Below, piece after piece: positions 2 to 20,713 of a DNA stretch of 64,000 bases. The notes below the pieces were generated by a model. It saw nothing but the letters and a program-made list of their open reading frames with translations, was not told where the DNA came from and ran no database searches. The DNA is from Candidatus Zhuqueibacterota bacterium (GTDB lineage: Bacteria; Zhuqueibacterota; Zhuqueibacteria; Thermofontimicrobiales; Thermofontimicrobiaceae), in the NCBI GenBank assembly GCA_049322915.1, contig JBMOPW010000045.1, positions 8,106 through 72,105 on the forward strand, read 5' to 3'. The first letter of the stretch is position 1, and each line of letters starts with the position of its first letter. Both the position numbers and the translations under genes were made by a program.

Positions 2-1744
2 GTATGTATTGCATATCTCCAATTGCTAATTCCGATTGTCGGTCGAGCGCAATACTCATTGTTACATGAAGAATTCAGCCAACCGAATTTTGCAACTCCT
101 TCGAACATAAATCATCACGTGTTAAATTTTTTCCATCATTCGTGTGGTTTAAATTTATTAGAAGATGGTTTAATGGATAGTCTTGAGGGACTTGGATATA
201 CTTTACATAGTAGAATTATTAGCACGTATGATTATGAAAATACCTATACTGATTATCGACACTGGTACAAGCGATTTCAACGGGAGTTAGGAATTCCTGT
301 AGGCGACCATTATTATCGGTACGAAGGTCCTGATAAGAATGGAGAACCAGTTATCAGCACTCAAATAGATGATGATTACAGAGATTTTATGCTGAATTAT
401 TATGATTTCAATGCTGAACGAATGGATATTATCATGTTTAAGCCATGTTACCCAAATTCTGAAATCAACGACTTCGATACACAATTTAACGCGAGTAGCG
501 ATAATAACGGATTTGGACAGGTAGTCAGTGGTACACCATATTCAGATAATGACTATAACAATTATCTGTATTTAAATTCGTCGTCGTCAGTGGATGATGA
601 GTATGATGCTGATTACTGGGAAAATGGAGTATGGCAGAAGGAAGCGTCTTCGTTAGCGCAACTGAAATGTGCTTACAGGGGAATGCTCAATATTTTTGTA
701 AACAACCCAGAAATTCTTTTCATTGCGATGCAAGCCCCACCTTTGGCAGAATTGTCTAATGAAGAATCAGCGAGTTGCAGAGAGTTTGCCCGCTGGTTAC
801 GAGAGGACTGGCTTCATCAATATGATCCTCTGGGAATTGATCAGTTTGAAGATTATCCCTTAAAAAATGTTGTGCCCTTCGAATTCCATAATTCAGTCGG
901 TTGGACTGGCAATAATCCACTCTTAGATGATGAGTACTTTTGGTTTGTGCAGGGTGGCTTTGCTGATAATACATTGGACACAAACGATTCAGATAAGATT
1001 GGGGAGAATGCATCTGGGAGAGATCATCCAGCTTCATGGCTTAACCAACGAACAGTCTCCATTTTCTGTGGCGGGACGGATATCTTTAGTCAGCAGTACA
1101 CCGGCCAGCCGCCGCGAACGTATTATTGTTGGATTAATGCAGTTGTAAACCGATGGGAGATGCAATCCACACCTGTGGAATTGACGAACTTTTCCGCCAG
1201 GATATGGGAAAATTCTGTCATTCTCCAATGGTCCACTCAATCTGAAACCAATAACTATGGCTTTGAAGTGGAACGGGCTACTGATAGGATGAGCTTTAAA
1301 AAAATTGCATTTGTCCCTGGGAATAATACCACAACAAGTCCCAAAGACTACCAGTACGAGGACAACAGTCTGGTGTTTGGAAAGTACTTTTATCGTCTCA
1401 AACAAATTGATTGCACTGGCGAATATAGTTACTCAGCGGTTCTTGATGTTCATCTGGCAATAGCGCGCGGTTTTAAGCTGTACCAAAATTATCCCAATCC
1501 ATTTAATGCTTCCACGAGTATCGCTTATGAGCTGCAGGACGCCGGAGATGTTGAATTAACCATTTATAACACAAAGGGGCAGGAGGTCAATCGGTTACTC
1601 CATGGCTATCAACATGCGGGATATCATTCTGCTAAATGGGACGGAACCGATTTTTCAGGCAGCTATGTCCCAACTGGAATTTACTATTGTAAGCTACGGG
1701 CCAATCACGATTATCAGGTAATTAAACTGTCGTATTTGAAATAA
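2..1744 (+). CDS. Secreted protein, 5'-truncated: SGNH-like N-terminal domain, PVEL-type Ig region and C-terminal FlgD-Ig/T9SS type A-like domain
   Basis: Frame is open from position 2 (VCIAYLQLLIPIVGRA|Q looks like the end of a signal peptide). Motifs FFHHSCG, DIIMFKPCY and GRDHP, then TPVELTNFSA, then YQNYPNPFN...WDG...GIYY...KLSYLK. Confidence 0.75.
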   Translation, partial: VCIAYLQLLIPIVGRAQYSLLHEEFSQPNFATPSNINHHVLNFFHHSCGLNLLEDGLMDSLEGLGYTLHSRIISTYDYENTYTDYRHWYKRFQRELGIPVGDHYYRYEGPDKNGEPVISTQIDDDYRDFMLNYYDFNAERMDIIMFKPCYPNSEINDFDTQFNASSDNNGFGQVVSGTPYSDNDYNNYLYLNSSSSVDDEYDADYWENGVWQKEASSLAQLKCAYRGMLNIFVNNPEILFIAMQAPPLAELSNEESASCREFARWLREDWLHQYDPLGIDQFEDYPLKNVVPFEFHNSVGWTGNNPLLDDEYFWFVQGGFADNTLDTNDSDKIGENASGRDHPASWLNQRTVSIFCGGTDIFSQQYTGQPPRTYYCWINAVVNRWEMQSTPVELTNFSARIWENSVILQWSTQSETNNYGFEVERATDRMSFKKIAFVPGNNTTTSPKDYQYEDNSLVFGKYFYRLKQIDCTGEYSYSAVLDVHLAIARGFKLYQNYPNPFNASTSIAYELQDAGDVELTIYNTKGQEVNRLLHGYQHAGYHSAKWDGTDFSGSYVPTGIYYCKLRANHDYQVIKLSYLK

Positions 1745-1860
1745 ATAGTGTTGTTTATCTGGTTTATGATTTTCTGTTTAAATGCATCTGAAAATTTTTT
1801 TCAAGTGGACTTAGTTGGATGGGCAAGGAATTTCTGTAATTTGCTCAGGAAGCGCGTATT

Positions 1861-3435
1861 GTGCAGATAAATAATTTCCTAGAAATTACCGCGCAAAATT
1901 TCCCTGATAAAAAAGCTATCTGGCATAATAACCAGTGGCTCACTTATTCAGAAATTAATTCACTATCGAACAAGGTCGGTAATTATTTGAAGGGCTGTGG
2001 CCTGGAACGCGGGGATCGGGTTGCCATCCTCCTCGAGAATAGTTTCGACTATATCATTTCTTACTATGCAATTTTAAAAATTGGGGCCATTACCGTTGCT
2101 CTAAATACTGAATCAACGACGGACTCATTGACTTACTTATTGAATGATTCAGGCGCCAGGGCAATTATATCGAATAAAAAATTCACTAAAAAGCTGATCC
2201 CTGCTTTAGCTAATTTGATAAATCTGAGATGGGCTATCATTGATCAGCCTGATCCTGCAGAATATCAAAAGCTAAATTTTTGCACTACCATCGCTTTAAA
2301 GAAAATTTATACATCTGGCAATGACGCTCATCCCAATGTGCGGTGCATCGATACCGATATCGCGTCTATTGTGTACACTTCAGGCAGCACAGGAAAACCA
2401 AAAGGCGCCACGTTAACTCATTTCAATATTGTGAGCAACACCCATTCGATCGTTGAGTATCTCCAGTTGAACGCGCACGATCGAATTATGGTTGTCCTGC
2501 CATTTTATTATATTTATGGGAAATCGCTGCTCAATACGCATTTCTGTGTTGGCGGATCCGTCGTCATTGATAACAGATTTCTCTATCCCAATGTCGTCCT
2601 CGAAACCATGAAGCAGATGGAGGTCACTGGTTTCTCCGGAGTGCCTTCTACGTTCATGATTCTGTTGAACAGGTCTTCTGTGCGCACTTACACATTTAGT
2701 TCGCTGCGCTATTTGACACAAGCCGGTGGCGCGATGGCGCCGGTTGTTCAAAAGGAAGTTGCTAAAGTTTTTTCGCCTGCCAAGTTATTCATCATGTACG
2801 GCGCCACCGAAGCTTCAGCGCGGCTCTCTTATTTAGATCCTGAAATGCTGCCCCAAAAGTGGGGATCCATCGGAAAAGCCATTCCCAATGTTGATCTTTT
2901 CATCGCTGATGAAAATGGACGTCCGCTACCGCCCGGGGAGGTCGGCGAGATCGTTGCCAGAGGATCGAATTTGATGGTGGGATACTGGAACGATCCGGAA
3001 GAAACGGCACGCGTGATAAAAAATGGTATGTACTTTACCGGCGATCTGGGTCGGATGGATGAAGATGGCTATCTCTTCGTCGTGGGGCGAAAACGAGACA
3101 TGATAAAAGTCGGCGGCGAGCGAGTGAGCGCCAAAGAAATCGAAGAAGCGATATTGGAAATCCCCGAAGTTCATGAAGTGGCAGTCATTGGCGTGGAAGA
3201 AGAAGTATTGGGTGAGGCGATTAAAGCGATCATTGTTTTCAATGATGAAATGGAACCGCTGCATGAAAAGGCAATTCGCGCATTCCTGTCAAAGAAATTA
3301 CCTCTGGTGAAAATACCAAAATTCATCGAGTTTGTCAAAACCCTTCCAAAGAACGAGTCCGGAAAAATTCTAAAGACCGTTCTGAGAGAGCAACATCGTA
3401 TTGAAACTTTTCAAGATGAAAGGGTACCGGAATGA
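1861..3435 (+). CDS. Class I adenylate-forming enzyme (AMP-dependent acyl/aminoacyl ligase)
   Basis: YTSGSTGKPKG P-loop, YGATE, TGDLG, GRKRDMIKVGGERV and the C-terminal PKNESGKILK lysine motif; GTG start. Confidence 0.93.
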   Translation: MQINNFLEITAQNFPDKKAIWHNNQWLTYSEINSLSNKVGNYLKGCGLERGDRVAILLENSFDYIISYYAILKIGAITVALNTESTTDSLTYLLNDSGARAIISNKKFTKKLIPALANLINLRWAIIDQPDPAEYQKLNFCTTIALKKIYTSGNDAHPNVRCIDTDIASIVYTSGSTGKPKGATLTHFNIVSNTHSIVEYLQLNAHDRIMVVLPFYYIYGKSLLNTHFCVGGSVVIDNRFLYPNVVLETMKQMEVTGFSGVPSTFMILLNRSSVRTYTFSSLRYLTQAGGAMAPVVQKEVAKVFSPAKLFIMYGATEASARLSYLDPEMLPQKWGSIGKAIPNVDLFIADENGRPLPPGEVGEIVARGSNLMVGYWNDPEETARVIKNGMYFTGDLGRMDEDGYLFVVGRKRDMIKVGGERVSAKEIEEAILEIPEVHEVAVIGVEEEVLGEAIKAIIVFNDEMEPLHEKAIRAFLSKKLPLVKIPKFIEFVKTLPKNESGKILKTVLREQHRIETFQDERVPE

Positions 3436-4244
3436 GAACACTAGTTTTGATCATATTCGTTGTGGCGCTTAGTTGCACGAATGATATGGAGAAAGACCAC
3501 ATGAAACTTCCTTTGGAATCGATTCAAATGAGCGATTCAGCAATCGACTCGTTGGCCTCCAAACGCATTTATTTTGGTCACATGTCCGTTGGGTACAACA
3601 TGATGAAGGGCGTCGAAAATGTCATCAAATCGGATGCACGACTCAGCGCCATCCGTGTGATAGAGCTTGCTGAAAATGATACGATTTCAGCGCCGGGATT
3701 TTATCACGGGAAAAACGGGAAGAATTCGTTCCCGGATACAAAGTGCGATGCGTTTAAAAATCTGTTATTTAAAAATGATTTTGCCAAGAATCTGGATATC
3801 GCGTTTTTTAAATTTTGCTATGTCGATTTAAAGGATAATTCCGATGTGCAAAAAATTTTCAATTATTATGTGTCTACTGTGGAGGGAGTGAAATCAGCAT
3901 TCCCTCACCTGAAAATTGTTCACGTCACTGTGCCGTTGAAATCCCATTGCTGGGGAATGAAAGAAAAAGTGAAACGGTTGTTCCAGACAGATGTATCAAA
4001 TATCAAGCGGAACGAATTTAATACCTTGCTTCTGGAGAAGTACAGCGGACATGAACCGGTGTTTGATCTGGCAGGAATTGAATCGACCTGTGAGGACGGC
4101 AGCCGGACGTCATTTAAACACAATGGCAATGTCTATTATTCACTTAATGATCGGTACACCTACGATGGCGGGCATTTGAACGCGGAAGGATCGCTCTTAG
4201 CAGGGCGGGCGCTCGTGCAACTTTTGTCTGAAATTTCCCTGTAA
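3432..4244 (+). CDS. Lipoprotein with SGNH/GDSL-like hydrolase/acyltransferase fold
   Basis: Signal peptide ending in lipobox-like ALSC; FGHMSVG (putative Ser nucleophile), FFKFCYVD and C-terminal DGGHLN (DxxH). ATGA overlap with the ligase stop. Confidence 0.7.
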   Translation: MRTLVLIIFVVALSCTNDMEKDHMKLPLESIQMSDSAIDSLASKRIYFGHMSVGYNMMKGVENVIKSDARLSAIRVIELAENDTISAPGFYHGKNGKNSFPDTKCDAFKNLLFKNDFAKNLDIAFFKFCYVDLKDNSDVQKIFNYYVSTVEGVKSAFPHLKIVHVTVPLKSHCWGMKEKVKRLFQTDVSNIKRNEFNTLLLEKYSGHEPVFDLAGIESTCEDGSRTSFKHNGNVYYSLNDRYTYDGGHLNAEGSLLAGRALVQLLSEISL

Positions 4245-4283
4245 CCCCTGGTTATAACTGATGAATGCGAGGAAGGAATTACA

Positions 4284-4535
4284 ATGCAACATTTGCCAGT
4301 AATCAAAGAGTTTATCATAGAAAATTTCCTGTTCGGCGATGGTGAAAATCTTCAGGACGATGCATCGTTTATGGATAACGGCATCATCGACTCCACAGGC
4401 ATCCTGGAGTTGATCACATTTCTCGAAGAGAAGTTTGGAATTAGCGTCAAGGACGATGAACTCGTTCCTGACAACCTGGACAGCCTGACGAAGGTCTCCG
4501 GCTATCTCGAAAGAAAGCTGCAGGCCGGACAGTGA
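4284..4535 (+). CDS. Acyl carrier protein
   Basis: 83 aa acidic protein with GIIDSTGILEL phosphopantetheine-attachment motif; purine-rich RBS (gaggaagga) upstream. Confidence 0.93.
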   Translation: MQHLPVIKEFIIENFLFGDGENLQDDASFMDNGIIDSTGILELITFLEEKFGISVKDDELVPDNLDSLTKVSGYLERKLQAGQ

Positions 4536-4758
4536 TGTCCTTTCCAACACCTGAAATCCAATCAATAAAACGGAATTCGAATGAAGCGAGTCGATTGATG
4601 GTTTTCAGAAATTGTGCGACAACGACTCTCCCGGCAGACGATCAATTTTCCCACCCTCTCATTGCGAATGCTCAGCGACATGGTTGAATCTCCGTTTAAT
4701 AACTTCATTCAGTCCTATTTTAACTCGATCATTTTCAACAATCACAACGACAACACGT

Positions 4759-6735
4759 ATGTGCGGAATCGCGGGTAAATACTCATTCTCTTCAGCGAAA
4801 CACATTTCGCCTCATGACATTGGCAAAATGGTTCAGATCATGAACTATCGTGGTCCGGATGAAACCGGCTGGTACGTGGACGATGTCGTTGGATTGGGAC
4901 ACGCGCGCCTCAGCATCATCGATCTGGCCGGGGGCGTGCAGCCCATTCACAACGAAGACGAGACCATGTGGATTGTGTACAATGGCGAGATTTTCAACTA
5001 TCCTGAATTGAAGGCTGACCTGGAAAAGAAAGGCCATCGTTTTTATACGACAACGGACACTGAGGTGCTGTTGCACCTCTATGAGCAAAAGGGTGTCGAT
5101 TGCCTGAATGATCTGAACGGCCAGTTCGCTCTGGCGATTTGGGATCGTTCGCGCCGCGAACTTTTTCTGGCCCGCGATCGCGTCGGCATTCGACCGCTGT
5201 TCTTTACGCTGCAAAATGATGTCCTGACATTTGCTTCGGAAATCAAAGCGATTTTCACTGACAGCGCCATCCCACGCGAAATCGATGCATCGGCGTTGGA
5301 TGAAATATTCACGTTCTGGACGAACCTGCCGGGCAGGACAGTGTTCAAAAATATTCACGAGCTCCGGCCCGGACATTACGCGACAATTAAAAACAACCAT
5401 TTTCAGATTGGCAAGTTCTGGGATATTCCTTTTGCGCCTCCACAGGATCAATTGAATTTATCAGTCGGCCAGTACGCCGAGCACATCAAGGATTTGCTGA
5501 CCGATGCCATCCGAATTCGGCTGCGAGCGGACGTGCCTGTGGGATGCTATCTCAGCGGCGGACTGGATTCGTCTGGGGTCACTTCGCTGGTGGTGAAAAA
5601 CTTCGATAATAACGTCCGCACATTTGGCATTCGGTTCGAGGAAAAAGCGTTCGACGAAGGCCAGCATCAAAATCTGATGGTGTCTTATCTTCGCACCGAT
5701 CACACTGAAATTGTAGCCACCAATCAATTCATCGGCGAAGCGCTGCCGCAAGTCCTCTGGCATTGTGAAAAACCGCTGCTGCGCACCGGACCGGTACCGT
5801 TGTTTTTATTATCGAAAGCCGTTCACGACAGCCACTATAAAGTTGTACTCACCGGCGAAGGCGCGGACGAGGTGTTCGGCGGATACAATATCTTTCGGGA
5901 AGCCAAGGTTCGGAATTTTTGGGCAAAGCAACCCGATTCCAAATTCAGGGGAAAGCTGATTGGAAAACTGTATCCGTACATCTTCAATGATCCGCGGCTC
6001 TGGCAAATGAAGCAGGTCTTTTTCGCGACCGGATTGGATCGTCATCATGACCCATTTTTCTCTCACCTCATTCGCTGGCAGACCACGAGTAAAATTAAGA
6101 CGTTCTTTGCAGCGGAGGTTCATGCTGCCCAGAACCTCGACGCCTTCAACGGAGCGCTCACATCCATGTTGCCGGCCTCCTTCTCGCAGTGGGATCCTCT
6201 CGCCAAAGCGCAGTATCTGGAAATGACCCTATTTTTGAGCAATTACCTGCTCTCATCCCAGGGCGACCGCGTGGCCATGGCCCATTCGGTGGAAATCCGA
6301 CTGCCTTTTCTTGACTATCGAATCATCGAGTTCATGGGACAGGTGCCGTCGTCTCTGAAAATCAGAGGAATGAACGAGAAGTATTTATTGAAGAAAGCAT
6401 TTCAGGGAATTTTGCCGGAAGCGATTGTCCGTCGCCCCAAGCATCCCTATCGCGCGCCGATTGGACAGAGCTTTTTTAATAAAGATACATCGGCGTTCAC
6501 GATGGATGTGCTCTCGGAACGCGAATTATTACAATCCGGGCTGTTCAATCCTGTCAAAGTAGCGGGTTTAATCCGCAAATTTCAGCAGCAGAGCGAAGCC
6601 AGCGAGACCGATAACATGGCGATCATGGGAATTTTGTCGGCGCAGTTGATCTTCCATCAATTCATCCGGGCCTTTCCCGGGGACAGCATCCGACCGAAAC
6701 AGCCAACTGTCGCGTTTGACTTTCGATCCGTATGA
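4759..6735 (+). CDS. asnB: Asparagine synthase (glutamine-hydrolysing) family amidotransferase
   Basis: Likely true start is MCGIAG at 4759 (N-terminal nucleophile Cys2). RGPD, GHARLSIIDL, NGEIFN, LSGGLDSS, GEGADE and DRVAMAHSVEIRLPFLD motifs. Confidence 0.93.
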   Translation: MCGIAGKYSFSSAKHISPHDIGKMVQIMNYRGPDETGWYVDDVVGLGHARLSIIDLAGGVQPIHNEDETMWIVYNGEIFNYPELKADLEKKGHRFYTTTDTEVLLHLYEQKGVDCLNDLNGQFALAIWDRSRRELFLARDRVGIRPLFFTLQNDVLTFASEIKAIFTDSAIPREIDASALDEIFTFWTNLPGRTVFKNIHELRPGHYATIKNNHFQIGKFWDIPFAPPQDQLNLSVGQYAEHIKDLLTDAIRIRLRADVPVGCYLSGGLDSSGVTSLVVKNFDNNVRTFGIRFEEKAFDEGQHQNLMVSYLRTDHTEIVATNQFIGEALPQVLWHCEKPLLRTGPVPLFLLSKAVHDSHYKVVLTGEGADEVFGGYNIFREAKVRNFWAKQPDSKFRGKLIGKLYPYIFNDPRLWQMKQVFFATGLDRHHDPFFSHLIRWQTTSKIKTFFAAEVHAAQNLDAFNGALTSMLPASFSQWDPLAKAQYLEMTLFLSNYLLSSQGDRVAMAHSVEIRLPFLDYRIIEFMGQVPSSLKIRGMNEKYLLKKAFQGILPEAIVRRPKHPYRAPIGQSFFNKDTSAFTMDVLSERELLQSGLFNPVKVAGLIRKFQQQSEASETDNMAIMGILSAQLIFHQFIRAFPGDSIRPKQPTVAFDFRSV

Positions 6736-6834
6736 GTCTGCCGGTGGCGTCCCCGTGGCAATTTCGCTGATTACTCGGAGCATTCGACCACATTAAAAAT
6801 CGTCCCATCATTCACTCAATTATTGCATGAAACC

Positions 6835-9090
6835 ATGAAAAAAATTCTGCCCGTTTTAATCCTGTTTCTTCTGGCCGGGGTGAATTCGGGAAGATGTCAG
6901 GCGCCGGGCGTTATCTCCGGAACGGTCACCGATGAACATGGCCAACCCCTGCCTAACGCTACCATCATCATCCTGGGCACGCAGTGGGGTGCTGCTTCGG
7001 ACAGCGAAGGCGTCTATCGGATACCGAATCTGGCCGCGGGAGTGTACAGACTGAAATGTATGAGCATGGGCTACGAATCAGTCATCAAGGACGCTGTGTC
7101 GGTGCGCGCCGGTGAGGTCACCACGGTGAATATTCAATTGATCGAAAAAGCGATTGAGATGGAGGAAGTCATCGTAACCCCGGGTGATTTTTCAATCGCG
7201 CAGCAGCAAACCGCCAAACGGCAGGTGATTGATAAAGAGAAGATCATCGATGTGCCGGCGACGTTGAACGACATTTGCCGCGTGTTGCAGATCATGCCCG
7301 GCATAACGTTCTCTGACGATTACAGCGCGCATTTTCATGTGCGCGGCGGGAAGCAGAACGAGAACCTCATTCTCCTCGATGGCATGGAGATATTCGACCC
7401 GTATCACCTCAAACATATTGGCGGCGCTGTCGGCGTGATGAATATGGAATTGACCGAGAATGTGTCGGTATTGACCGGCGGGTTTCCTGCCCGGTACGGG
7501 GATAAATTATCTTCAGTGGTGGCAGTGGAAAATCGGGCTGGCGATAAAGAGAGGTTCAGTGGTAATATCGGCGGCGGCGGCACCGGATTTTCATTTTTGC
7601 TGGAAGGACCCATGCCGTACGGCAGTTGGATTCTTTCTGCGCGAAAAAGTTTTTTGAAAGAAGCGGCTGAGTTCCTGAATCCCACGGATTACACTTTTTC
7701 ACCATCCTTTTATGACGTGCAGGGAAAACTTTCATTGACCGGCTCCGGCAGGAATCAATTCACCTACAATTTTCTTTATTCAAAAGATAACTCGTATCTG
7801 GAAAAATGGCGCCGGGACTCAGAACTGAACTCGGATTACGGCAACAGCTATCACGGCATCGTCTGGCGAAAGATCATCAGTCCCAGATTTCTGTGGGAAA
7901 TGATCCTCTCCCGCGGTGAGAATTTCTGGGACAATAAAATCGGGGATGATAAACGGGAGAAATTGAACCTAGCCGAGAATGTGTTCACGTGGAATTTCAC
8001 AACGGAGCCGCTGCGCCGGCATCATGTTGAAGCCGGATTGACCTACAAATTCATCAGCTACGATTACGAACTGGATGCGCCCGAAATTTCCACGGACCTG
8101 CAGGATTTCGAGGAGTTGGTTCAGTCGGCTTATGGCGATGTTAAAATTAATCCCAGGACCTACAAGTTGTCCGGGTTCCTGCAGGACAAATTCCCCATCT
8201 ATCAATCCCTGTTCGCCAATGTGGGGCTGCGTTACGATTATTTCGAGTACAACGAAGATCAACATGTTTCACCGCGGCTGGGCCTGGCTTATAAAGTGAC
8301 CGAGAAAACCATATTCCGGGGCGCCTGGGGCCATTTTTACCAATCCCCGGTGTACACAGAATTGACTGATACAAAGGGCGCAGAACACAACCCGACATCG
8401 GAGAAGTCGGTCCACTATGTCGCCGGCGTTGAACATCACTTCTCGGACAAAATCTCTATTCGGGTGGAGGCCTATCAAAAGACATTGGAGCAGATGATCG
8501 GGCATTATTATGAAATTATTGAGGAAGAGCCGGAGATCCGATACGGGAACCCCTATGATGGTTTGGCAAAGGGCGTTGAGTTTTTCTTTAATGGACAATT
8601 CACAAAACGCTGGTCTCTCTGGGGCGCCTATGCTTTCTCAAAGACCGAGATCGAACGGCTGCTGATCGACTGGCAGGAACTATCTATTGAAACGCAGACA
8701 GTCCCCCGATTTACTGACCAGCCGCACAATCTCTCCCTGTTCACCAGCGTGCTGTTTCCGCGAGCCTGGGAACTGAATATCAAATGGCGATACCTGTCCG
8801 GAATCCCCTACACGCCGGAGTACCCGGTCTGGAACAATGGCAAAGCCAATTGGGATAGCGGGGAGCCGTATTCGGCTCGCTATCCTGCGTACCATCGATT
8901 GGATGTCCGAATTGGCAAGCGATTCACGTTCAATCGATTCGAACTGGCTACTTTTCTCGAAATAAAAAATCTGTACAATAATGACAATGTGTTGCTGTAC
9001 GATTTCGAAATTGAAGATAACCAGCATGTGAAAAAAGTCTATCACACGCTGCCATTTCTGCCAACCATAGAATTTACGTTAACTTTTTAA
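6835..9090 (+). CDS. TonB-dependent outer-membrane receptor with N-terminal carboxypeptidase-regulatory-like domain
   Basis: Signal peptide; ISGTVTD...GAASD..G.Y.I domain; plug motifs VRGG..NEN.ILLDG and GGFPARYG.KLSSV; GLRYD, SPRLG, NLYN; terminal Phe. Confidence 0.9.
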   Translation: MKKILPVLILFLLAGVNSGRCQAPGVISGTVTDEHGQPLPNATIIILGTQWGAASDSEGVYRIPNLAAGVYRLKCMSMGYESVIKDAVSVRAGEVTTVNIQLIEKAIEMEEVIVTPGDFSIAQQQTAKRQVIDKEKIIDVPATLNDICRVLQIMPGITFSDDYSAHFHVRGGKQNENLILLDGMEIFDPYHLKHIGGAVGVMNMELTENVSVLTGGFPARYGDKLSSVVAVENRAGDKERFSGNIGGGGTGFSFLLEGPMPYGSWILSARKSFLKEAAEFLNPTDYTFSPSFYDVQGKLSLTGSGRNQFTYNFLYSKDNSYLEKWRRDSELNSDYGNSYHGIVWRKIISPRFLWEMILSRGENFWDNKIGDDKREKLNLAENVFTWNFTTEPLRRHHVEAGLTYKFISYDYELDAPEISTDLQDFEELVQSAYGDVKINPRTYKLSGFLQDKFPIYQSLFANVGLRYDYFEYNEDQHVSPRLGLAYKVTEKTIFRGAWGHFYQSPVYTELTDTKGAEHNPTSEKSVHYVAGVEHHFSDKISIRVEAYQKTLEQMIGHYYEIIEEEPEIRYGNPYDGLAKGVEFFFNGQFTKRWSLWGAYAFSKTEIERLLIDWQELSIETQTVPRFTDQPHNLSLFTSVLFPRAWELNIKWRYLSGIPYTPEYPVWNNGKANWDSGEPYSARYPAYHRLDVRIGKRFTFNRFELATFLEIKNLYNNDNVLLYDFEIEDNQHVKKVYHTLPFLPTIEFTLTF

Positions 9091-9319
9091 TCCCTCGGCA
9101 GTACCAGGGACGAAAAATAATTCTACCACCTTCGCCAACCAACCAAACACGAACAGGGCGAAAGACAACACGTTTATTTCATTCATAAAAATACTCTGCT
9201 GATTTCTCATCTCTCAGATTGCAGTGTAGTACGTTTCGACTCCGCGGATCTCTGATGCGCTGCCTCCTAAAAGTTATTCACAATTAATTGTCCGCTATCC
9301 AGTGGGCAGGAGGTGTAAC

Positions 9320-10957
9320 ATGAAAAGTTTTATCAAAATTCTAAGTACGAGCAGTTGCGTCATTTTGGTGTCGCTGTTATTTTCAGGCGTAGTCTCCGCT
9401 CAGTTCGTCATCAACGCCAATGATTTTCCATCGACGCCCGGGATTTGCATCATCACCGAAGACGATACGGTGAATGGCATCGGCATTGATGTCGGCTTGC
9501 CCGGCGCAAACCGTGTCTGGCGCTTCGACCAGCCATATCCAAGCACTCTCAGCCGTCAGGTGTTGATGGCCCCGAAAGATACCCCATTTTCAGCTCAATT
9601 CCCGGACGCCAACGTGGCCGTTCGTTACGACGGCAAACTGGGACACATCGTCCACAGCTACTATTTCGACGATATTTCCGGGGAGATTTATGGCTATCAA
9701 CAATTGACGCCAGGCGAACTGCGGATTCAGGGCTTTGGTGTGGATTCTGCCCTCGCCCGCTATAATGAATACGTGGCTGATGTGAGGGGGATAGTGGATA
9801 TTGAACCCAATGTGTTGATGCATTCTTTTCCCCTGAGGTACGGCAAAACCTGGCAGAGCGTCTCGGATTTTAGTGTGGAAGCAGATACAACCCTGTTTGG
9901 AATTCCCATCACCTTGTCAGCGGACATCAAGGACAATGTCTCCTCCGTAGTCGATGGTTGGGGAACCATCTATTTACCGAATGCAAGTTATCGGACGTTA
10001 CGAGTGAAATCCTACATCTCATTGCAGGAAGATTTATTTCTCAATGGCGTTCAGATTCGTTCGAAGAAAACCCGTACCATAAATTATTACTGGATCGCTC
10101 AGCATTATGGCATCGTGGCCCGCGTCATCAGCTATTCCAATGAACCTGACGACGGATTCCTCTTGGCCAAACAAGTGTCGCGGATTCATCTGTTCAATCC
10201 GAAAATTGAGCTGCGGCTCGATTCCTATAGCGGTCACCGCGGCGATATTTTTGAAATACCGATCCACATCAACAAAGTCACCGATCTTTCCATCTCATCT
10301 GTTCAGTTCAAAATTGGTTTTGATACAGGCAAGCTCATTCCGATGGAGGTGATCACACGGGGCGCGCTCACTGAAAAATGGCGCGCGCCGGAATTGATCG
10401 CTACGACGACCGGGGTGCAGTTCAAACTCAGCGGCGATGAGCCCCTGGCCGGCGAGGGCGTGTTATGTTACCTCAAAATGCAGGCCAATCCCAATGCGAC
10501 CGATTACGGGCTGACGGCCATCTCCTTCGATGAAGTAAAAATTGACAAAAGCGGCCCCATGATTGTGCCGTTTCCGGGTCGATTTGTCCTGTTGCCCGGA
10601 AATGTGCTGACCCGGGAAGAACAAATTGCCTTCGAACAACTCGTCGCCGGCTCCCTGGCAGAGTTCCGATTGATGCAAAATTACCCCAACCCGTTCAATT
10701 CTCTCACCACGATCGGATACCAATTGCCATCGAATTCCACAGTCACTCTTCAGATTTTTGACATGCAGGGCCGATTGATTCACACATTGGCGCAGGGCAC
10801 GCAGCCAGCCGGACAGCATTTTTTGAATTGGGATGGGCGCGATGGTTTTGCCAATCTCGTGGCTTCCGGGACGTATTATTACCGCATCGATGTTGCACCC
10901 AATGAAACGACACAACAAACACTTTCATTCGTGAAGAAGCTCATTCTACTAAAGTGA
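9320..10957 (+). CDS. Secreted protein: uncharacterised ~290 aa N-domain, cohesin-like domain and FlgD-Ig/T9SS-like CTD
   Basis: RBS aggagg before ATG 9320; signal peptide VSA|Q; cohesin-like EIPIHINKVTDLSISSVQFKIGFD...GEGVLCYLKM; QNYPNPFN CTD. Confidence 0.75.
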   Translation: MKSFIKILSTSSCVILVSLLFSGVVSAQFVINANDFPSTPGICIITEDDTVNGIGIDVGLPGANRVWRFDQPYPSTLSRQVLMAPKDTPFSAQFPDANVAVRYDGKLGHIVHSYYFDDISGEIYGYQQLTPGELRIQGFGVDSALARYNEYVADVRGIVDIEPNVLMHSFPLRYGKTWQSVSDFSVEADTTLFGIPITLSADIKDNVSSVVDGWGTIYLPNASYRTLRVKSYISLQEDLFLNGVQIRSKKTRTINYYWIAQHYGIVARVISYSNEPDDGFLLAKQVSRIHLFNPKIELRLDSYSGHRGDIFEIPIHINKVTDLSISSVQFKIGFDTGKLIPMEVITRGALTEKWRAPELIATTTGVQFKLSGDEPLAGEGVLCYLKMQANPNATDYGLTAISFDEVKIDKSGPMIVPFPGRFVLLPGNVLTREEQIAFEQLVAGSLAEFRLMQNYPNPFNSLTTIGYQLPSNSTVTLQIFDMQGRLIHTLAQGTQPAGQHFLNWDGRDGFANLVASGTYYYRIDVAPNETTQQTLSFVKKLILLK

Positions 10958-10965
10958 GGATTGCA

Positions 10966-13461
10966 ATGAAGAATCAACGTCACACATTTTTGATTTGCAG
11001 CATGCTCGCGTTGAACCTTGTTCTGTTCAATGGAGATCTGTTGTCGCAAATTACCATCAACAGCGACGATTATCCGTCGCAGATCGGAACCTATATTGTC
11101 ACGGAAGACGATACTGCAGATGTGGTACATGTCAATGTGGGACTGCCGGGGGAAAATCAAATCTGGTACATTCAGCAAGAAATTCCCGGCATTCTGACCC
11201 GGCAACTGGTGGTGGATAAAGCCAATACGCCCTATCTTGCTGATTTTCCTGATGCGAATCTGGTGACCCGATATGCCGGAGAACTTGGTTTTCTGGTTCA
11301 TAGCTATTACTTCGATGATGTGGATGGGCTGTTTTATTCGTATCAGAAAATAAACGCAGACAGCCTCATCATCGCTGGGATTGGCGTTGATTCTTCCCAG
11401 GCAGAGTATGAAGATGTCTACCTGAATTTTAAAGGGCCAGTCGATTTGGAGCCAGACCTGCTGCAATTCGCCTTCCCATTGGTGTATGAAAAATGGTGGG
11501 AAACGGCTTCGCACAGCACTGTCGAAGTGGATACTATGCTGTACGGCATTTGGACGAATCTGCGGACTGAAGTGCGCGACAGCATTTACAACGTCGTGGA
11601 TGGCTGGGGCACGGTGGTGTTGCCGCAAGCCAGCTTCGCGTGTCTGCGCGTTAAAAGCTTTATCTTATTAAGTGAAATGATGTACACCAATGGTGTGCTG
11701 TTTCGCGAACGGCATACCCGAACAATTAACTACACCTGGGTCACTGAAGAATCGGGAATCGTCGCCCGAATCATGAGTCACTCGGACGAACCGGATGAAA
11801 ATTTCACCGAGGCGAAACAGATTTCCCGGTTGCACATGTTCAATCCGAGCGTGAATGTCTCGCTCGCCGACACAATTGCCGCGCCGGGGGAATCGGTCAT
11901 AATGCCGGTTCGCGTCTCCTCCATGACGGATCTGGATATCGTGAAAGCGCAGATGGATGTGAGCTTTGAAAAAGGAATTATCCAATCGCTGGAGATTGTC
12001 ACGGAAGGGACACTGACGGCTTTGTGGCAGTCACCGATGTTGTCCGGGACATCCAGCGGCGTTACTGTCTCACTGCACGGCGACGCGCCATTGACCGGCC
12101 AGGGGATCCTTTTTTACCTGAAATTGGTCGTTGCTGAAGGCGCCGGCGATTTGGCGCAGACAGCAATTGGAATCGACAATCTGCTCGTTGAGCACGATGG
12201 GCCTGTTTTCACTATCCAGCCGGGACGGCTCACCGTGGCGCACACGTATGATATTTCCGGCGCAGTCAAATATTATTCCGGCGACAGTCCGATTGACCGC
12301 TCTACCGTGTATTTGAATGAAAAAAGCACGGTCACAGGCGCCGATGGCGGATACGAATTTTCAGTCCTCCCCAGAGGGAATTATTCCTTGAAGCCCATGA
12401 AAGATGGCGATTTGAAAAACAGCATATCCGCGTTCGATGCATCCCTGATTTTACGAGCTAACGTTGGCGCTGTTGACTTGCTCCCGTACCAAAAAATTGC
12501 CGCTGATGTTTCCGGCAACGGCAGCGTCACTGCCTATGACGCTTCCATGATCCTGAGATACTCAGTTGGCCTTATTTCTGAATTTACAGTCGGTGATGAT
12601 TGGCGGTTCGTACCTTCGGATTTCGCCATTGATCAGACAAACTGGAATGCGACACCGCGGCAGATCGACTATTCGCCATTGGCTGAGACAAAGATCGCTC
12701 AGAATTTCACGGGGATTGTTTACGGCGATGTTTCCGGAACCTGGTCTGCGAATGGCGCGAAGATGAATGCCCTTTATCGGCCGTACACGGGCATCGGATC
12801 GCTTCGCTTCGGTGAACTCACGGAGTCCAAAGACAAAATCACTGTACCGTTGGTGATAACTTCAGATTGCGAAATCCTCGCCGCGAGCTTTGAAATCAGA
12901 ACGCCGGGTCAGCCGCTTGAATTCGCGAATCTGGCGCTGAATGCCGAAACGCCAGCGATGCTGATGGAGTTCTCGGAGACGGATGGCGTCATTCAAGTGG
13001 CGCTTGCAAGTCCTGAAAAAATGAATGAAATTGAAAATCTGCTCAGCCTCGAGTTCGTGAAAAAGCATGAAACGCCGGGCCATGTGCCGGAGGTGAAGAT
13101 CACCAACATCCTCCTGAACGGGGGATTGGTTCAAACACAGCATTCCGATGAACTTTCACTGTCTGACCAGACTCAGCCGCTGAAATTCGAACTGCTTCAG
13201 AATTATCCCAATCCCTTCAACTCCAGCACCTGCATCCGCTATAGTTTGCAGGACAGAAGGTATGTTCGAATTTCAATTTTCAATGCTCTGGGGCAGACCA
13301 TCAGCGTGATGGACGAGGGCTATCAGAACGCCGGGACGCATGAAGTTCGCTGGGCAGGGAAAAATTCCCGGGGGAACGATGTCCCATCAGGCATCTATTT
13401 TTATGAACTGGAATCTTTTGGCGCGGATCGGGAAATTCGAAAGATGGTATTGATTCGATAG
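10966..13461 (+). CDS. Secreted paralog of the upstream gene: N-domain, cohesin-like, Ig-like, dockerin-like, second cohesin-like region and FlgD-Ig CTD
   Basis: N-domain aligns by eye with 9320-10957. Duplicated dockerin-type motif (SISAFDASLILR...ADVSGNGSVTAYDASMILR); QNYPNPFN CTD. Confidence 0.75.
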   Translation: MKNQRHTFLICSMLALNLVLFNGDLLSQITINSDDYPSQIGTYIVTEDDTADVVHVNVGLPGENQIWYIQQEIPGILTRQLVVDKANTPYLADFPDANLVTRYAGELGFLVHSYYFDDVDGLFYSYQKINADSLIIAGIGVDSSQAEYEDVYLNFKGPVDLEPDLLQFAFPLVYEKWWETASHSTVEVDTMLYGIWTNLRTEVRDSIYNVVDGWGTVVLPQASFACLRVKSFILLSEMMYTNGVLFRERHTRTINYTWVTEESGIVARIMSHSDEPDENFTEAKQISRLHMFNPSVNVSLADTIAAPGESVIMPVRVSSMTDLDIVKAQMDVSFEKGIIQSLEIVTEGTLTALWQSPMLSGTSSGVTVSLHGDAPLTGQGILFYLKLVVAEGAGDLAQTAIGIDNLLVEHDGPVFTIQPGRLTVAHTYDISGAVKYYSGDSPIDRSTVYLNEKSTVTGADGGYEFSVLPRGNYSLKPMKDGDLKNSISAFDASLILRANVGAVDLLPYQKIAADVSGNGSVTAYDASMILRYSVGLISEFTVGDDWRFVPSDFAIDQTNWNATPRQIDYSPLAETKIAQNFTGIVYGDVSGTWSANGAKMNALYRPYTGIGSLRFGELTESKDKITVPLVITSDCEILAASFEIRTPGQPLEFANLALNAETPAMLMEFSETDGVIQVALASPEKMNEIENLLSLEFVKKHETPGHVPEVKITNILLNGGLVQTQHSDELSLSDQTQPLKFELLQNYPNPFNSSTCIRYSLQDRRYVRISIFNALGQTISVMDEGYQNAGTHEVRWAGKNSRGNDVPSGIYFYELESFGADREIRKMVLIR

Positions 13462-13504
13462 ACATTCACTCAGTGGTGCTCATTTCAAGAACAGGATAGT
13501 CATT

Positions 13505-14461
13505 ATGCCATTCTCAAAAGAGTCCGTGCTCCTGGATATCGCTGTGGAGACGGAGAAGATTGTAACAAAGCTTCGCGCCGACGTCGCGCACACGTTGAAG
13601 AAACGGGGCGCTGTTGTCGGAATAAGTGGGGGAATCGATTCCTCGGTCGTGTTAGCGCTGTGCGCGAAGGCGTTCGGCCCACAGAAAGTGTTCGGCGTGA
13701 TGATGCCGGAAAAGGATTCCAGCTCGGATAGCTTCATCCTGGCAAAATCGCTCGTCAGAAAATTCAGCGTCGATTATGTGCTGGAAGATATGACCCCGGC
13801 TCTGTACGGTTTCGGAACTTACGCCAGAAGAGATGAAGCGATCCGGCAGATTTTCCCGGAATATGATGTCAGCTACAAAGCAAAGATCGTTCTGCCGAAG
13901 AATATACTCGAAAAAGACACGCTGAATGTCTATCATCTCACGATCATTGCGCCAAACGGGGAAGAGAAGACAAAGCGAATCCCGATAAAGGAGTACCTGC
14001 AAATCGTCGCTGCTTCCAATTTTAAACAGAGAAGCCGCATGAGCATGTTGTACTATCACGCGGAACGGCTCAATTATGCCGTGATCGGGACGGGCAATAA
14101 AAATGAGCATGAGATGGGTTTCTTCGTCAAATACGGTGACGGCGGCGCTGATGTCAAACCAATCGCCCATCTCTTCAAAAGTCAGGTGTTTCAGTTAGCG
14201 GCGTTTCTGGGCGTGCCTGATGAGATTCAGAGCCGAACTCCGACCACGGATACCTACAGCGCAGAACAAACTCAGGAAGAGTTCTTTTTCAAATTGCCTT
14301 TCGAAATACTCGATGCCATCTGGTTCGGCTGGGAAAAAGGCCACTCTCCGGAAGAGATCGCCGCAGGCCTGAATTTATCGACAGCGCAAGTGCAATTTGT
14401 GATCAATGACATTAAGCGGAAAATCGCTGCTACGGAATACCTGAGAATGATGCCGATTTAA
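13505..14461 (+). CDS. nadE: NadE-like ATP-pyrophosphatase amidoligase (NH3-dependent NAD synthetase family, with insertion)
   Basis: VGISGGIDSS PP-loop, NFKQRSRM, GTGNKNE, GFFVKYGDGGAD, LFKSQV; no glutaminase domain. Confidence 0.8.
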   Translation: MPFSKESVLLDIAVETEKIVTKLRADVAHTLKKRGAVVGISGGIDSSVVLALCAKAFGPQKVFGVMMPEKDSSSDSFILAKSLVRKFSVDYVLEDMTPALYGFGTYARRDEAIRQIFPEYDVSYKAKIVLPKNILEKDTLNVYHLTIIAPNGEEKTKRIPIKEYLQIVAASNFKQRSRMSMLYYHAERLNYAVIGTGNKNEHEMGFFVKYGDGGADVKPIAHLFKSQVFQLAAFLGVPDEIQSRTPTTDTYSAEQTQEEFFFKLPFEILDAIWFGWEKGHSPEEIAAGLNLSTAQVQFVINDIKRKIAATEYLRMMPI

Positions 14462-14515: not shown

Positions 14516-14549
14516 AAAACCTCAGTCCATGAAAGATTGAGGTTTTTTT
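14516..14549. terminator. Bidirectional intrinsic terminator between convergent genes
   Basis: aaaacctcagtc-catgaaa-gattgaggttttttt hairpin with A/T tracts on both sides. Confidence 0.75.
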
Positions 14550-14579: not shown

Positions 14580-15218
14580 TCAACGCACTAATACCATTTT
14601 TTTGACGTCCCAGAAGTCGTCGGCGTCGATTCGATAGAGATAAATTCCAGTCGCTGCCCTGCGACCGTCTGCTGTTACTCCATCCCAGAGCGCCGAATGG
14701 AGACCTGCCTGAAGGGTGGCGTTCGCGAGCACCCGAATCTGCGAGCCGCTCACATTGTACAAGGTTATTTTCACGCGCGCGCTGCCGGGCAGGTAATAAA
14801 AAATCAAAGTCGAGCCATTGAACGGATTGGGATAATTTTGAAACAGCGCGAAATCATCGGGCTGAAATGAAGTGAGCGATCCGAATATCTGGCACAGCGT
14901 GGTATCGATGATGTTCGAGAAGCCACTTTCATTCCCCAAAAGATCAACAGCGGTGGCGGCATAATAATAATGCTCGCCCCAGGACAGGTCGGTGTCGATG
15001 TAAAGTGTGTCCGGGTGGTTGACCGTGGCGACTCTTTTAAATTTCAATGTGTCAGAAGTTGTACGATAGATGGCGTAGTAGGAGATATAGCGATTCGGAT
15101 TCGGGGACCACGCAAGCGTGAGCGATTGAGACTGTGCAGAACGAGAAGACATTGGAAAAATGACGAACCACCCCAGCAACCACATGACACATTTGATTAC
15201 GATTGTGTATCGATCCAT
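14580..15218 (-). CDS. Small secreted protein: fibronectin type III domain and FlgD-Ig/T9SS-like CTD
   Basis: Signal peptide; LTLAWS...YAIYR...YIDT.L..G.HYYYAATAVD..GNESGFSN (FN3); QNYPNPFN CTD. Confidence 0.8.
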   Translation of the reverse strand: MDRYTIVIKCVMWLLGWFVIFPMSSRSAQSQSLTLAWSPNPNRYISYYAIYRTTSDTLKFKRVATVNHPDTLYIDTDLSWGEHYYYAATAVDLLGNESGFSNIIDTTLCQIFGSLTSFQPDDFALFQNYPNPFNGSTLIFYYLPGSARVKITLYNVSGSQIRVLANATLQAGLHSALWDGVTADGRRAATGIYLYRIDADDFWDVKKMVLVR

Positions 15219-15503
15219 GATACAACCATCTTTTCTGGAATCAAATGGCGCATTAAAATAATGGAAATATTTTATGGGGTAAACTGGAATTCTTCAATTT
15301 AGTTCCAGGAATTTTTTCATCGCGGCAAAGACAGGCGCTCGTTGAAATCGCCAGCCCGGGTATAACGCCAAAATGCAGATCCCATGAACTATGCTTGCTT
15401 CGAATAGTTCATGGGAGTCGCCTGAAATTGCTGTTGCCTTGAATCATCGAGTGCTGTTCTTTCATTGCCAGGGAACGCGAAAATGGTGTCTGGCTGGAAT
15501 CCG

Positions 15504-16406
15504 TCATTTCACCAGAGTCATTTTTTTCAGGCTGGCGTGTTCATTGATTTTGATTTTGTAATAATACACGCCCGACGCTAAACCGTCACCAGTCTCGCTT
15601 AATCCGTTCCAATGAAAAGAGTGACTTCCCGCCTCCTGTAGTTTGTTGACAGCATTGAGAACGCGCTCGCCGTTCATGTTGTAAATGACCAGTTGCACTT
15701 GACCCGCCTCGGGGATGGAGTAGGAAATGCTCGTGCCAGCGTTGAATGGATTGGGATAATTCTGCCCCAGGTAAAATTTGTTCGGCACATTCACCGAGAC
15801 TTCATTCACGTTGGATAGGGCAAAGTCGCCATTGAAATCGATTTGCTTGAGGCGGTAAAAATAGGTGCCGGCGTCCAGGTTTTCATCGCTGTACTGGTAA
15901 TCCCTGGGTTCGTTGGTGGTGCCGTTGCCATGAACAAAACCGATCTTTTCAAAATTGCTGGTGTTTTCGTGGCTTCTCTGTATTTCGAAACCGAAATTGT
16001 TCTGTTCAGTGGTCGTCGTCCAGGTGAGAAGTACGTTGCTCTCAAAAACCTGGCACGTAAAACGGCTCAGCTCAACCGGCGAGGTGTTATGCATGAGCGT
16101 GTCGATGACATTGGAGAAGCCGCTCTCGTTCCCGGAGTTGTCAATGGAGGTCGCCGCGTAGAAATAGGCATTTCCAAATAACACGGCATCATCGAGATAA
16201 ATCGTATCCGGGTGGTTGATTGTGGCGATCAGTACGAAATTGGTATCGCTGTGGATGCTCCGGTAAATTCCATACGAGGCGATTTCGGGATTCGCGCTCG
16301 GCGACCAGGCAAGTGTCACAGTCTGTGAGAGCGACCGGGAGTTCATCATAAGCCCCACGACGATCAGGAATAACGTACGAATCAGATTCTTTTGTAATGC
16401 ATTCAT
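15504..16406 (-). CDS. Secreted protein: FN3, PVEL-type Ig region and FlgD-Ig CTD (paralog of the adjacent gene)
   Basis: FN3 domain closely matches 14580-15218 (TLAWSP..N, ATINHPDT.Y.D, GNESGFSN.IDT); SPVELSRF; QNYPNPFN. Confidence 0.82.
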   Translation of the reverse strand: MNALQKNLIRTLFLIVVGLMMNSRSLSQTVTLAWSPSANPEIASYGIYRSIHSDTNFVLIATINHPDTIYLDDAVLFGNAYFYAATSIDNSGNESGFSNVIDTLMHNTSPVELSRFTCQVFESNVLLTWTTTTEQNNFGFEIQRSHENTSNFEKIGFVHGNGTTNEPRDYQYSDENLDAGTYFYRLKQIDFNGDFALSNVNEVSVNVPNKFYLGQNYPNPFNAGTSISYSIPEAGQVQLVIYNMNGERVLNAVNKLQEAGSHSFHWNGLSETGDGLASGVYYYKIKINEHASLKKMTLVK

Positions 16407-20438: not shown

Positions 20439-20713
20439 ATCTTTCTCCGAAACACATGAAACGCACAAGTGATAGTCGATCAAAATAAATTCCAGGACAG
20501 GCTTTCTTTGTGCTGAAACATTGCCTGCGCCTTTCGCATTGCCACAAGAAAAAAGGGCTGAAAATTCAGCCCTTTCTCTTGAACCAACCACAATGGAATT
20601 CAATGGTATTGAAAATTTTATGTCTTTTCTTCAAAATAGAAATCGCTTGCACGAAGTTAATAAACGTTGCTTTTTCTAAAAACCCGATTCAGTAATTTAC
20701 TTCAAGAACGAAG

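Follow-up and report, generated by a model that had tools for sequence, protein, structure and literature searches.

A carrier-protein cassette with two putative amide-forming enzymes and an unannotated family of SGNH-fold lipoproteins in a polysaccharide locus of a Candidatus Zhuqueibacterota bacterium

Gene organization of the window

The subject of this study is a stretch of 64,000 nt (hereafter the window) from Candidatus Zhuqueibacterota bacterium (assembly GCA_049322915.1, contig JBMOPW010000045.1, positions 8,106-72,105; G000:C45:8106-72105 in our numbering, in which G000 is this genome, with a completeness of 96.3%, and C45 is this contig). Its first 14.5 kb encode an adenylate-forming ligase, a stand-alone acyl carrier protein (ACP), an AsnB-family amidotransferase and a NadE-like enzyme, which together form a cassette that recurs in other genomes, and an exported lipoprotein of SGNH fold, here named SGNH270, that often accompanies it. 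The gene set has been noted before and never explained; what is new is the unannotated SGNH lipoprotein family and the setting with a type IX secretion system (T9SS).

A first-pass annotation of the window had described nine co-directional genes running up to a strong terminator, and all nine were found on the + strand with the domains claimed for them (open reading frame (ORF) list, Pfam and NCBIfam):

2..1744, +, T9SS-sorted secreted protein, 587 aa (FlgD_ig 48 bits; TIGR04183 28.2 bits, cut-off 23)
1861..3435, +, adenylate-forming ligase, presumed ACP loader (AMP-binding 292 bits, with AMP-binding_C)
3432..4244, +, SGNH-fold lipoprotein SGNH270, 270 aa (predicted fold; lipoprotein-type N-terminus)
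4284..4535, +, stand-alone ACP, 83 aa (PP-binding 21.8 bits, cut-off 20.8)
4759..6735, +, glutamine-dependent AsnB-family amidotransferase, 658 aa from Met-Cys (TIGR01536 506.5 bits, cut-off 267.1)
6823..9090, +, TonB-dependent receptor (CarboxypepD_reg, Plug, TonB_dep_Rec_b-barrel)
9302..10957, +, T9SS-sorted Cohesin protein, 551 aa (Cohesin 36.1 bits; TIGR04183 37.1 bits)
10954..13461, +, T9SS-sorted paralogue, 835 aa (Cohesin 26.0 bits, Dockerin_1 24.6 bits, TIGR04183 26.1 bits; CarboxypepD_reg-like part)
13505..14461, +, NadE-like NH3-type ATP pyrophosphatase (NF002048 448.4 bits, cut-off 313)
14516..14546, no strand, terminator-like hairpin between convergent genes (12-pair stem, then a T run)

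The T9SS sorting domain (TIGR04183) is thus over its cut-off of 23 in the first, seventh and eighth of these genes. A Pfam scan of the nine proteins reported no condensation, ketosynthase or thioesterase domain, in agreement with the first-pass annotation.

A four-gene cassette conserved across genomes

The core of the system is the set of ligase, ACP, AsnB-like and NadE-like genes, which is a conserved unit because of the neighbourhood counts obtained from two anchors, and the SGNH lipoprotein is a frequent, separable companion. An alignment-based scan of species genomes for SGNH270 confirmed 477 stretches; the counts given here are based on the best 80 loci. Within 10 kb of the SGNH gene these loci hold a ligase gene in 41 cases, an ACP gene in 38, an AsnB-like gene in 28 and a NadE-like gene in 19; when only the 39 loci that extend 5 kb or more to both sides of the SGNH gene are counted, the respective numbers are 24, 23, 16 and 9. 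When the NadE-like gene is taken as the anchor, the loci of 13 related genomes contain a ligase gene in 8 (9 with G001, via its locus L015), an ACP gene in 7, an AsnB-like gene in 6 and an SGNH gene in 2. The co-occurrence of the four genes, on which the first-pass annotation depended, recurs in many genomes and across phylum labels. In G011, a genome of the same family, the order SGNH-ACP-AsnB-ligase-NadE is contiguous, and the full five-gene set is carried by Nostoc sp. CHAB 5836 (L070), which is cultured. Syntrophorhabdus aromaticivorans (L056), another cultured organism, has the ligase, ACP and SGNH genes. Two loci from metagenome-assembled genomes labelled Aminicenantes (L080 and L089) each contain two NadE-like paralogues, one beside the ligase gene and one directly after the ACP gene.

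The same four genes are present on the pSymB replicons of Sinorhizobium, where they are annotated in the order asnB, ACP, class I adenylate-forming enzyme and nadE, adjacent to each other and with unrelated flanks. The window proteins show 44% (AsnB), 56% (ACP), 35% (ligase) and 50% (NadE-like) identity to their pSymB counterparts, and in the window all four lie in one co-directional + strand cluster within 12.6 kb. The two arrangements differ in that the pSymB genes are contiguous and outside a glycan locus, whereas in the window the order is another, the SGNH gene is nested, three genes part AsnB from NadE, and the ligase pocket motif is of another type. The S. meliloti ACP was reportedly described in 2009 by Ramos-Vega. 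According to passages of a later report, SMb20650 (the ligase) is co-transcribed with SMb20651 (the ACP), SMb20651 becomes acylated in E. coli upon co-expression of SMb20650, and SMb20650 is unable to replace FadD and is not a fatty-acyl-CoA synthetase (PMC7232532); a passage of another paper calls the function of the SMb20651 ACP in need of investigation (PMC5686131). No paper naming the product of the cassette was found in the literature searched.

Ser37 of the ACP is invariant in 25 homologues. The true start of the AsnB-like protein is the Met-Cys ATG at 4759, not the TTG at 4612 given by the ORF lister; its alignment with the S. meliloti AsnB begins at MCG, and the protein passes TIGR01536 and has the N-terminal Cys nucleophile. 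In the SGGIDS loop of the NadE-like protein, S41, G42, G43, D45 and S46 are invariant in 21 sequences. This protein resembles the NadE of P. horikoshii (2E18; E 1.8e-30) in belonging to the PP-loop ATP pyrophosphatase fold family and in its SGGxDS loop; it differs from the solved NadE structures by about 65 inserted residues between the matched stretches, and it is an accessory copy linked to a carrier. A weak match of the ACP to the "OlsHI" carrier model was dropped because OlsH needs no ACP (PMC12493201).

The first-pass annotation had also counted the TonB-dependent receptor and the two cohesin proteins as parts of the system, a view that does not hold. Among the 80 SGNH-anchored and 13 NadE-anchored loci, receptor homologues stand in the same position only in L015/G001, which is of the same genus (72% identity), and in L018 (52%). 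The protein encoded at 9302-10957, whose N-terminal 270 aa match no known family, has a homologue only in L015/G001 (69%), as has that encoded at 10954-13461 (61%), which is itself 42% identical to the product of the preceding gene. Because these homologues, apart from the receptor in L018, are limited to the genus and the cassette of G011 is contiguous without receptor and cohesin genes, the three genes are a recent genus-level insertion that splits the cassette and not conserved parts of it; their products are probably co-transcribed passengers or cell-surface partners.

A widespread family of SGNH-fold lipoproteins

The gene for SGNH270 sits between those of the ligase and the ACP, and its ATG overlaps the ligase TGA as ATGA. 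The protein has no Pfam match (E <= 0.01) and no NCBIfam match, and its profile retrieves nothing under E 0.1 from the PDB sequences. A protein search yielded 1148 homologues, nearly all unnamed, with labels from many phyla and some archaea. A single-sequence AlphaFold prediction (predicted local distance difference test (pLDDT) score 45) was discarded; the alignment-based model has a pLDDT of 90, and its fold neighbours include the O-acetyltransferases PatB and OatA. H50, S52, N98, D245 and H248 are invariant in 109 aligned sequences, and Cys15 is present in at least 90% of them. We take S52, N98, D245 and H248 to correspond to the SGNH blocks, going by the usual motif pattern and not by superposition. 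Judged by the model, SGNH270 has the fold of the SGNH/GDSL superfamily with catalytic Ser, Asn and Asp-x-x-His. The "SGNH-like lipoprotein" overlapping the ligase stop, as the first-pass annotation had put it, is therefore confirmed in its modelled fold, its lipoprotein-type N-terminus and its ATGA overlap.

The genetic tie between this exported protein and the cassette was likewise upheld: in 22 of the 80 loci a same-strand cassette gene is found no more than 600 bases from the SGNH gene. Among the labels of these loci are cyanobacteria, Nitrospirota, Desulfobacterota, Spirochaetota, Acidobacteriota, Gemmatimonadota, Aminicenantes and Calditrichia. Conversely, the cassette occurs without an SGNH gene in S. 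meliloti and in 11 of the 13 NadE-anchored loci of relatives. SGNH270 is thus an unannotated, widespread family of exported SGNH-fold lipoproteins tied to the cassette.

The genome has just two members of this family, the second being a 383-aa protein encoded upstream of the window that carries a T9SS sorting domain (hhalign E 1.3e-39); the family thus comprises a lipoprotein form and a form sorted by T9SS. Fusions of SGNH270 with a T9SS domain are also seen in L015, L018 and L019.

The product of the first gene of the window (2-1744) had been named a second SGNH-like secreted protein. It is secreted, and its relation to SGNH270 is at best distant: hhalign against the SGNH270 profile gave a probability of 1.4% with one motif, and it was not counted as a member of the family. 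Its Atlas neighbours are automatically named SGNH (0.89; TM 0.58), which we treat as a lead. The true start of this gene lies 19 bases before the window, at G000:C45:8086, and the protein begins with a domain that may be a remote SGNH relative, which is followed by an Ig-like and a type A sorting domain.

The polysaccharide locus and its protein-sorting context

Contig C45 extends only 8.1 kb upstream of the window, and this part (G000:C45:146-8020; L014) encodes six polysaccharide-locus genes on the same strand as the window genes:

Upstream (L014), same strand, MOP/Wzx flippase
Upstream (L014), same strand, polysaccharide deacetylase
Upstream (L014), same strand, Wzy/O-antigen-ligase-like membrane protein, 463 aa, with eight hydrophobic segments
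Upstream (L014), same strand, 671-aa protein with no family assigned
G000:C45:6172-7323, same strand, SGNH270 paralogue with T9SS type A sorting domain, 383 aa (TIGR04183 39.4 bits)
Upstream (L014), same strand, hexapeptide-repeat acyltransferase

The first-pass annotation had advised a look upstream for flippase, glycosyltransferase and MBOAT genes; the flippase and tailoring genes are there, and an MBOAT gene is not. Among the 120 listed relatives of the Wzy-like protein, one has PF04932 (Wzy_C) and one is named O-antigen ligase. The first 14.5 kb of the window make up the distal half of a polysaccharide locus of Wzx/Wzy type in a diderm with T9SS, and the locus probably continues past the contig end.

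Related loci point to the same context. When all ORFs of the 80 SGNH270 loci were clustered without bias and the cluster representatives then annotated, the usual company of the SGNH gene proved to be glycosyltransferases, DegT aminotransferases, hexapeptide acyltransferases and deacetylases; glycosyltransferases, DegT proteins and XrtA-system genes over curated cut-offs are present among the related loci. Markers of the XrtA/PEP-CTERM system (exosortase, EpsI, XrtA deacetylase, FemAB-like protein and system ATPase, several of them over cut-off) are found in 26 of the 80 loci and T9SS-tagged ORFs in 13, and no locus has both. This split may simply follow taxonomy; it shows that the same accessory genes serve polysaccharide loci tied to two different protein-sorting systems.

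The XrtA/PEP-CTERM exopolysaccharide accessory set (ligase TIGR03098, decarboxylase TIGR03099, hydrolases TIGR03100/03101, amidotransferase TIGR03108 and FemAB-like TIGR03019, as taken from NCBIfam names only) supplies the best specific families for the window ligase and AsnB-like protein. Both proteins are nevertheless below the cut-offs of TIGR03098 and TIGR03108, G000 has no match to the exosortase family PF09721 in its 96.3% complete assembly, and the sorted proteins encoded nearby carry T9SS domains and not PEP-CTERM. Haft 2006 (PMC1569441) does not mention ligase, acyl carrier, asparagine, decarboxylase, amidotransferase or hydrolase.

A parallel on the T9SS side is offered by Porphyromonas. 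In passages of PMC7468200, WbpS, WbqG and the uronamide-forming PGN_1234 are assigned to the TIGR03108 family, and genes for such amidotransferases are noted beside deacetylase, FemAB-like and exosortase genes. It is further stated there that Porphyromonas T9SS cargo is joined to glycan via an amino-acid-bearing uronamide sugar, that a TIGR03108-type enzyme of the AsnB family forms the amide of this sugar and, as speculation, that a related compound is used by XrtA systems (PMC7468200). The window shares with these Wbp/Vim systems an AsnB-family enzyme encoded in a surface-glycan locus of a T9SS organism, near a deacetylase and a flippase; it differs in the link of its enzyme to ligase, ACP and NadE-like protein and in the lack of a VimA/FemAB-like gene in the locus. 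A stretch of 18 kb here holds six T9SS-tagged genes, and the whole 6.25-Mb genome at least 150, an enrichment that is suggestive only, because T9SS-tagged genes cluster elsewhere in the genome too.

Proposed role of the cassette

It is proposed, with a confidence slightly above even, that the ACP carries an amide-bearing acyl group during its assembly and that this group is then transferred to a glycan, with editing by the SGNH proteins outside the cell. The proposal starts from proteins whose parts, folds, families and linkage are documented above. By analogy with S. meliloti, the only homologue for which loading is reported, the ligase would adenylate an acid and load the dedicated ACP. The AsnB-like and NadE-like enzymes may then convert one or more free carboxylates of the tethered group, or of the acceptor, to carboxamides; AsnB homologues amidate thioester-bound starter units in polyketide pathways. 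A cytoplasmic acyltransferase, for which the upstream hexapeptide-repeat enzyme is the likeliest candidate, would move the group to a lipid-linked sugar, after which the MOP flippase would flip the unit and the Wzy-like protein polymerise it. Outside the cytoplasm, the SGNH lipoprotein, of which the fold, export signal and gene linkage are established, and its T9SS-tagged paralogue could act on ester-linked acyl groups of the polymer, as esterases or in acyl shifting. Nothing in this scheme departs from the general logic of polysaccharide tailoring.

Several points weigh against the proposal. Only 8 of the 80 loci have the complete four-gene set within 10 kb of the SGNH gene. A hexapeptide transferase is encoded in 24 of the 80 loci, and its transfer role is a guess. 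The ligase passes no curated family cut-off, its best NCBIfam matches being PRK06187 (436.5, cut-off 476) and TIGR03098 ligase_PEP_1 (416.4, cut-off 592.35), and by sequence comparison it is about equally like nonribosomal peptide synthetase (NRPS) adenylation domains and fatty-acyl, malonyl and oxalyl ligases. At least two pocket-motif types can be told apart in an alignment of the cassette ligases (at about residues 211-228 of the protein encoded at 1861-3435), and the product may differ between loci. Finally, the best specific family of the AsnB-like protein, TIGR03108, includes uronamide-forming enzymes, and the protein could accordingly act on the glycan and not on the ACP.

As for the substrate, comparison of the ligase with solved structures singled out no class. 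The pocket type of the window ligase is common to most of the copies in XrtA loci, an "FD" type is found in S. meliloti, in cyanobacterial loci and in some others, and three loci have a third variant. At the position of the Asp in the "FD" motif of the S. meliloti type (A4 motif), which holds Asp in amino-acid-activating relatives, the window ligase has Ile; on this reading of the motif, the Ile argues against an alpha-amino acid substrate here.

Here and in many further genomes, genes automatically annotated as "NAD(+) synthase" and "asparagine synthase" belong to a carrier cassette in polysaccharide loci, and the annotation error is widespread. Cultured carriers such as Nostoc sp. CHAB 5836 mean that the chemistry can be worked out, and identifying the substituent would account for a common decoration of biofilm polymers in the environment.

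Alternative explanations

The alternative that survives best, although we consider it unlikely, is that two separate tailorings are encoded side by side: the AsnB-like and NadE-like enzymes would amidate sugar uronic acids, as WbpS and WbqG do, and the ligase and ACP would supply an unrelated acyl group. The setting in a polysaccharide locus agrees with this, as does TIGR03108 as the best specific family of the AsnB-like protein, with the relatives WbpS, WbqG and PGN_1234 named above. The protein is, however, far under the cut-off of that family (451.2 bits against 816.9), which a paralogue encoded on contig C14 approaches more closely with 698 bits. The four genes also stand together on the S. 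meliloti pSymB with no glycan gene beside them, and the NadE-like gene adjoins the ligase gene in 8 of the 13 relatives' loci, both of which speak against two separate tailorings.

Clearly improbable is a true Dlt-like relay, the reading proposed by the first-pass annotation, in which the group on the ACP would cross the inner membrane and be transferred by the SGNH lipoprotein to polysaccharide, lipid or T9SS-sorted proteins. Known systems of this logic are Dlt D-alanylation and the O-acylation pairs of an MBOAT and an SGNH protein (PatA/PatB, AlgI/AlgJ/AlgX, OatA). The likeness is real in that the genes for an adenylating ligase, a small carrier and an SGNH-fold protein located outside the cytoplasm lie together, with the SGNH gene nested between ligase and ACP genes here and adjoining cassette genes in 22 of the 80 loci, and in that PatB and OatA are fold neighbours of SGNH270. 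A Dlt-like relay needs a membrane acyltransferase, however, and this step is lacking. No protein of the locus matches MBOAT, as the first-pass annotation had observed for the window, there is no AT3 partner, and the genome's sole PF03062 match is elsewhere, on contig C39, with a ligase, a carrier fusion and a GDSL-like protein of its own. An MBOAT gene lies within 10 kb of the SGNH gene in 5 of the 80 loci, directly before it in L016 and L017 and directly after the ligase gene in L087 (best NCBIfam match DltB, 238 bits, cut-off 375); the relay is thus conceivable in a minority of loci, and 75 of the 80, like the present one, have no MBOAT. The ACP is far below the cut-offs of the DltC models (NF003464 24.8 bits, cut-off 68; TIGR01688 16.3 bits, cut-off 52.35). 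The existence of the cassette without an SGNH gene speaks against the relay too, and the two amide-forming enzymes have no counterpart in Dlt. No DltA model is among the 25 best of the 109 NCBIfam matches of the ligase, and DltD is not among the matches listed for the fold search with SGNH270.

Contig C39 thus holds a second, more Dlt-like carrier system with its own parts (G000:C39:19600-26712; L099:6600-13712). Besides the MBOAT protein, which is DltB-like (176 bits, cut-off 375), it encodes a FemAB/GNAT protein fused to a PP-binding domain and a 431-aa weakly GDSL-like protein, and divergently a TIGR03099-like pyridoxal 5'-phosphate-dependent decarboxylase (362 bits, cut-off 478) and a TIGR03098-like ligase (423 bits, cut-off 592).

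A bolder variant, in which the locus makes a glycan to which T9SS-sorted proteins are tied, the cassette provides an amide-bearing linker and the SGNH enzymes, the lipoprotein and the paralogue that T9SS itself exports, handle it outside the cell without an MBOAT, is a long shot. If true, it would represent a T9SS counterpart of XrtA/PEP-CTERM protein-exopolysaccharide coupling, with an amide-bearing acyl or aminoacyl linker on the ACP and a new kind of trans-envelope acyl relay.

It is very improbable that the cassette makes a siderophore-like, secreted, amide-bearing metabolite that is imported through the TonB-dependent receptor. Here, in G001/L015 and in L018 the receptor gene does lie inside the cassette, and the ACP is weakly similar to the petrobactin carrier AsbD (25.1 bits, cut-off 100), but the receptor is absent from the other 78 of the 80 SGNH-anchored and from 12 of the 13 NadE-anchored loci, the Pfam scan of the nine proteins found no exporter and no siderophore synthetase domain, and the polysaccharide context is constant.

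That the NadE-like and AsnB-like enzymes make NAD and asparagine and are located here by chance can hardly be maintained: they pass the general family cut-offs (NF002048 448 bits, TIGR01536 506 bits), but the NadE-like gene is patchy (14 of 41 related genomes, and 9 of the 29 of high quality, have an NF002048 match over cut-off), it is linked to ligase and ACP genes again and again under different phylum labels, and canonical copies exist elsewhere in the genome. These are a Gln-dependent NadE on contig C14 (581 aa, CN_hydrolase and NAD_synthase, NF010588 757 bits) and an AsnB of 554 aa (NF006949 931 bits), and there are three further AsnB-family paralogues; the window genes are not the sole housekeeping copies, an objection that the first-pass annotation had itself raised.

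Other features of the genome and of related loci

Two of the AsnB-family paralogues are encoded 9 kb apart on contig C14 (G000:C14:227080-237616), and the one that scores 698 bits with TIGR03108 (cut-off 817) is nearer the sugar-amidating type than the window copy and may mark another polysaccharide locus. A WbuX-like PP-loop protein, the third kind of amidotransferase-like gene product in SGNH270 loci, is encoded in 17 of the 80 (e.g. L060:5168-6190; TIGR03573 156 bits, cut-off 203). Ten of the 80 loci (e.g. L037:742-1116) contain small genes of the family PF05635 ("23S rRNA-intervening sequence protein").

A family of large secreted fn3-like proteins forms arrays 3' of the SGNH gene, with 13 members in five loci (L033, L045, L069, L082 and L093) labelled Bacteroidota or Ignavibacteriota, at about 10.8-20.8 kb in each; at least one ORF with a T9SS-like C-terminus is present in L033, L045, L069 and L082. 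On the far side of the terminator of the window, two small T9SS-tagged proteins of 212 and 300 aa, the first with fn3, are encoded convergently (window 14580-16406, - strand), followed by a 1223-aa protein with an alpha-amylase catalytic domain (window 16932-20603, - strand).

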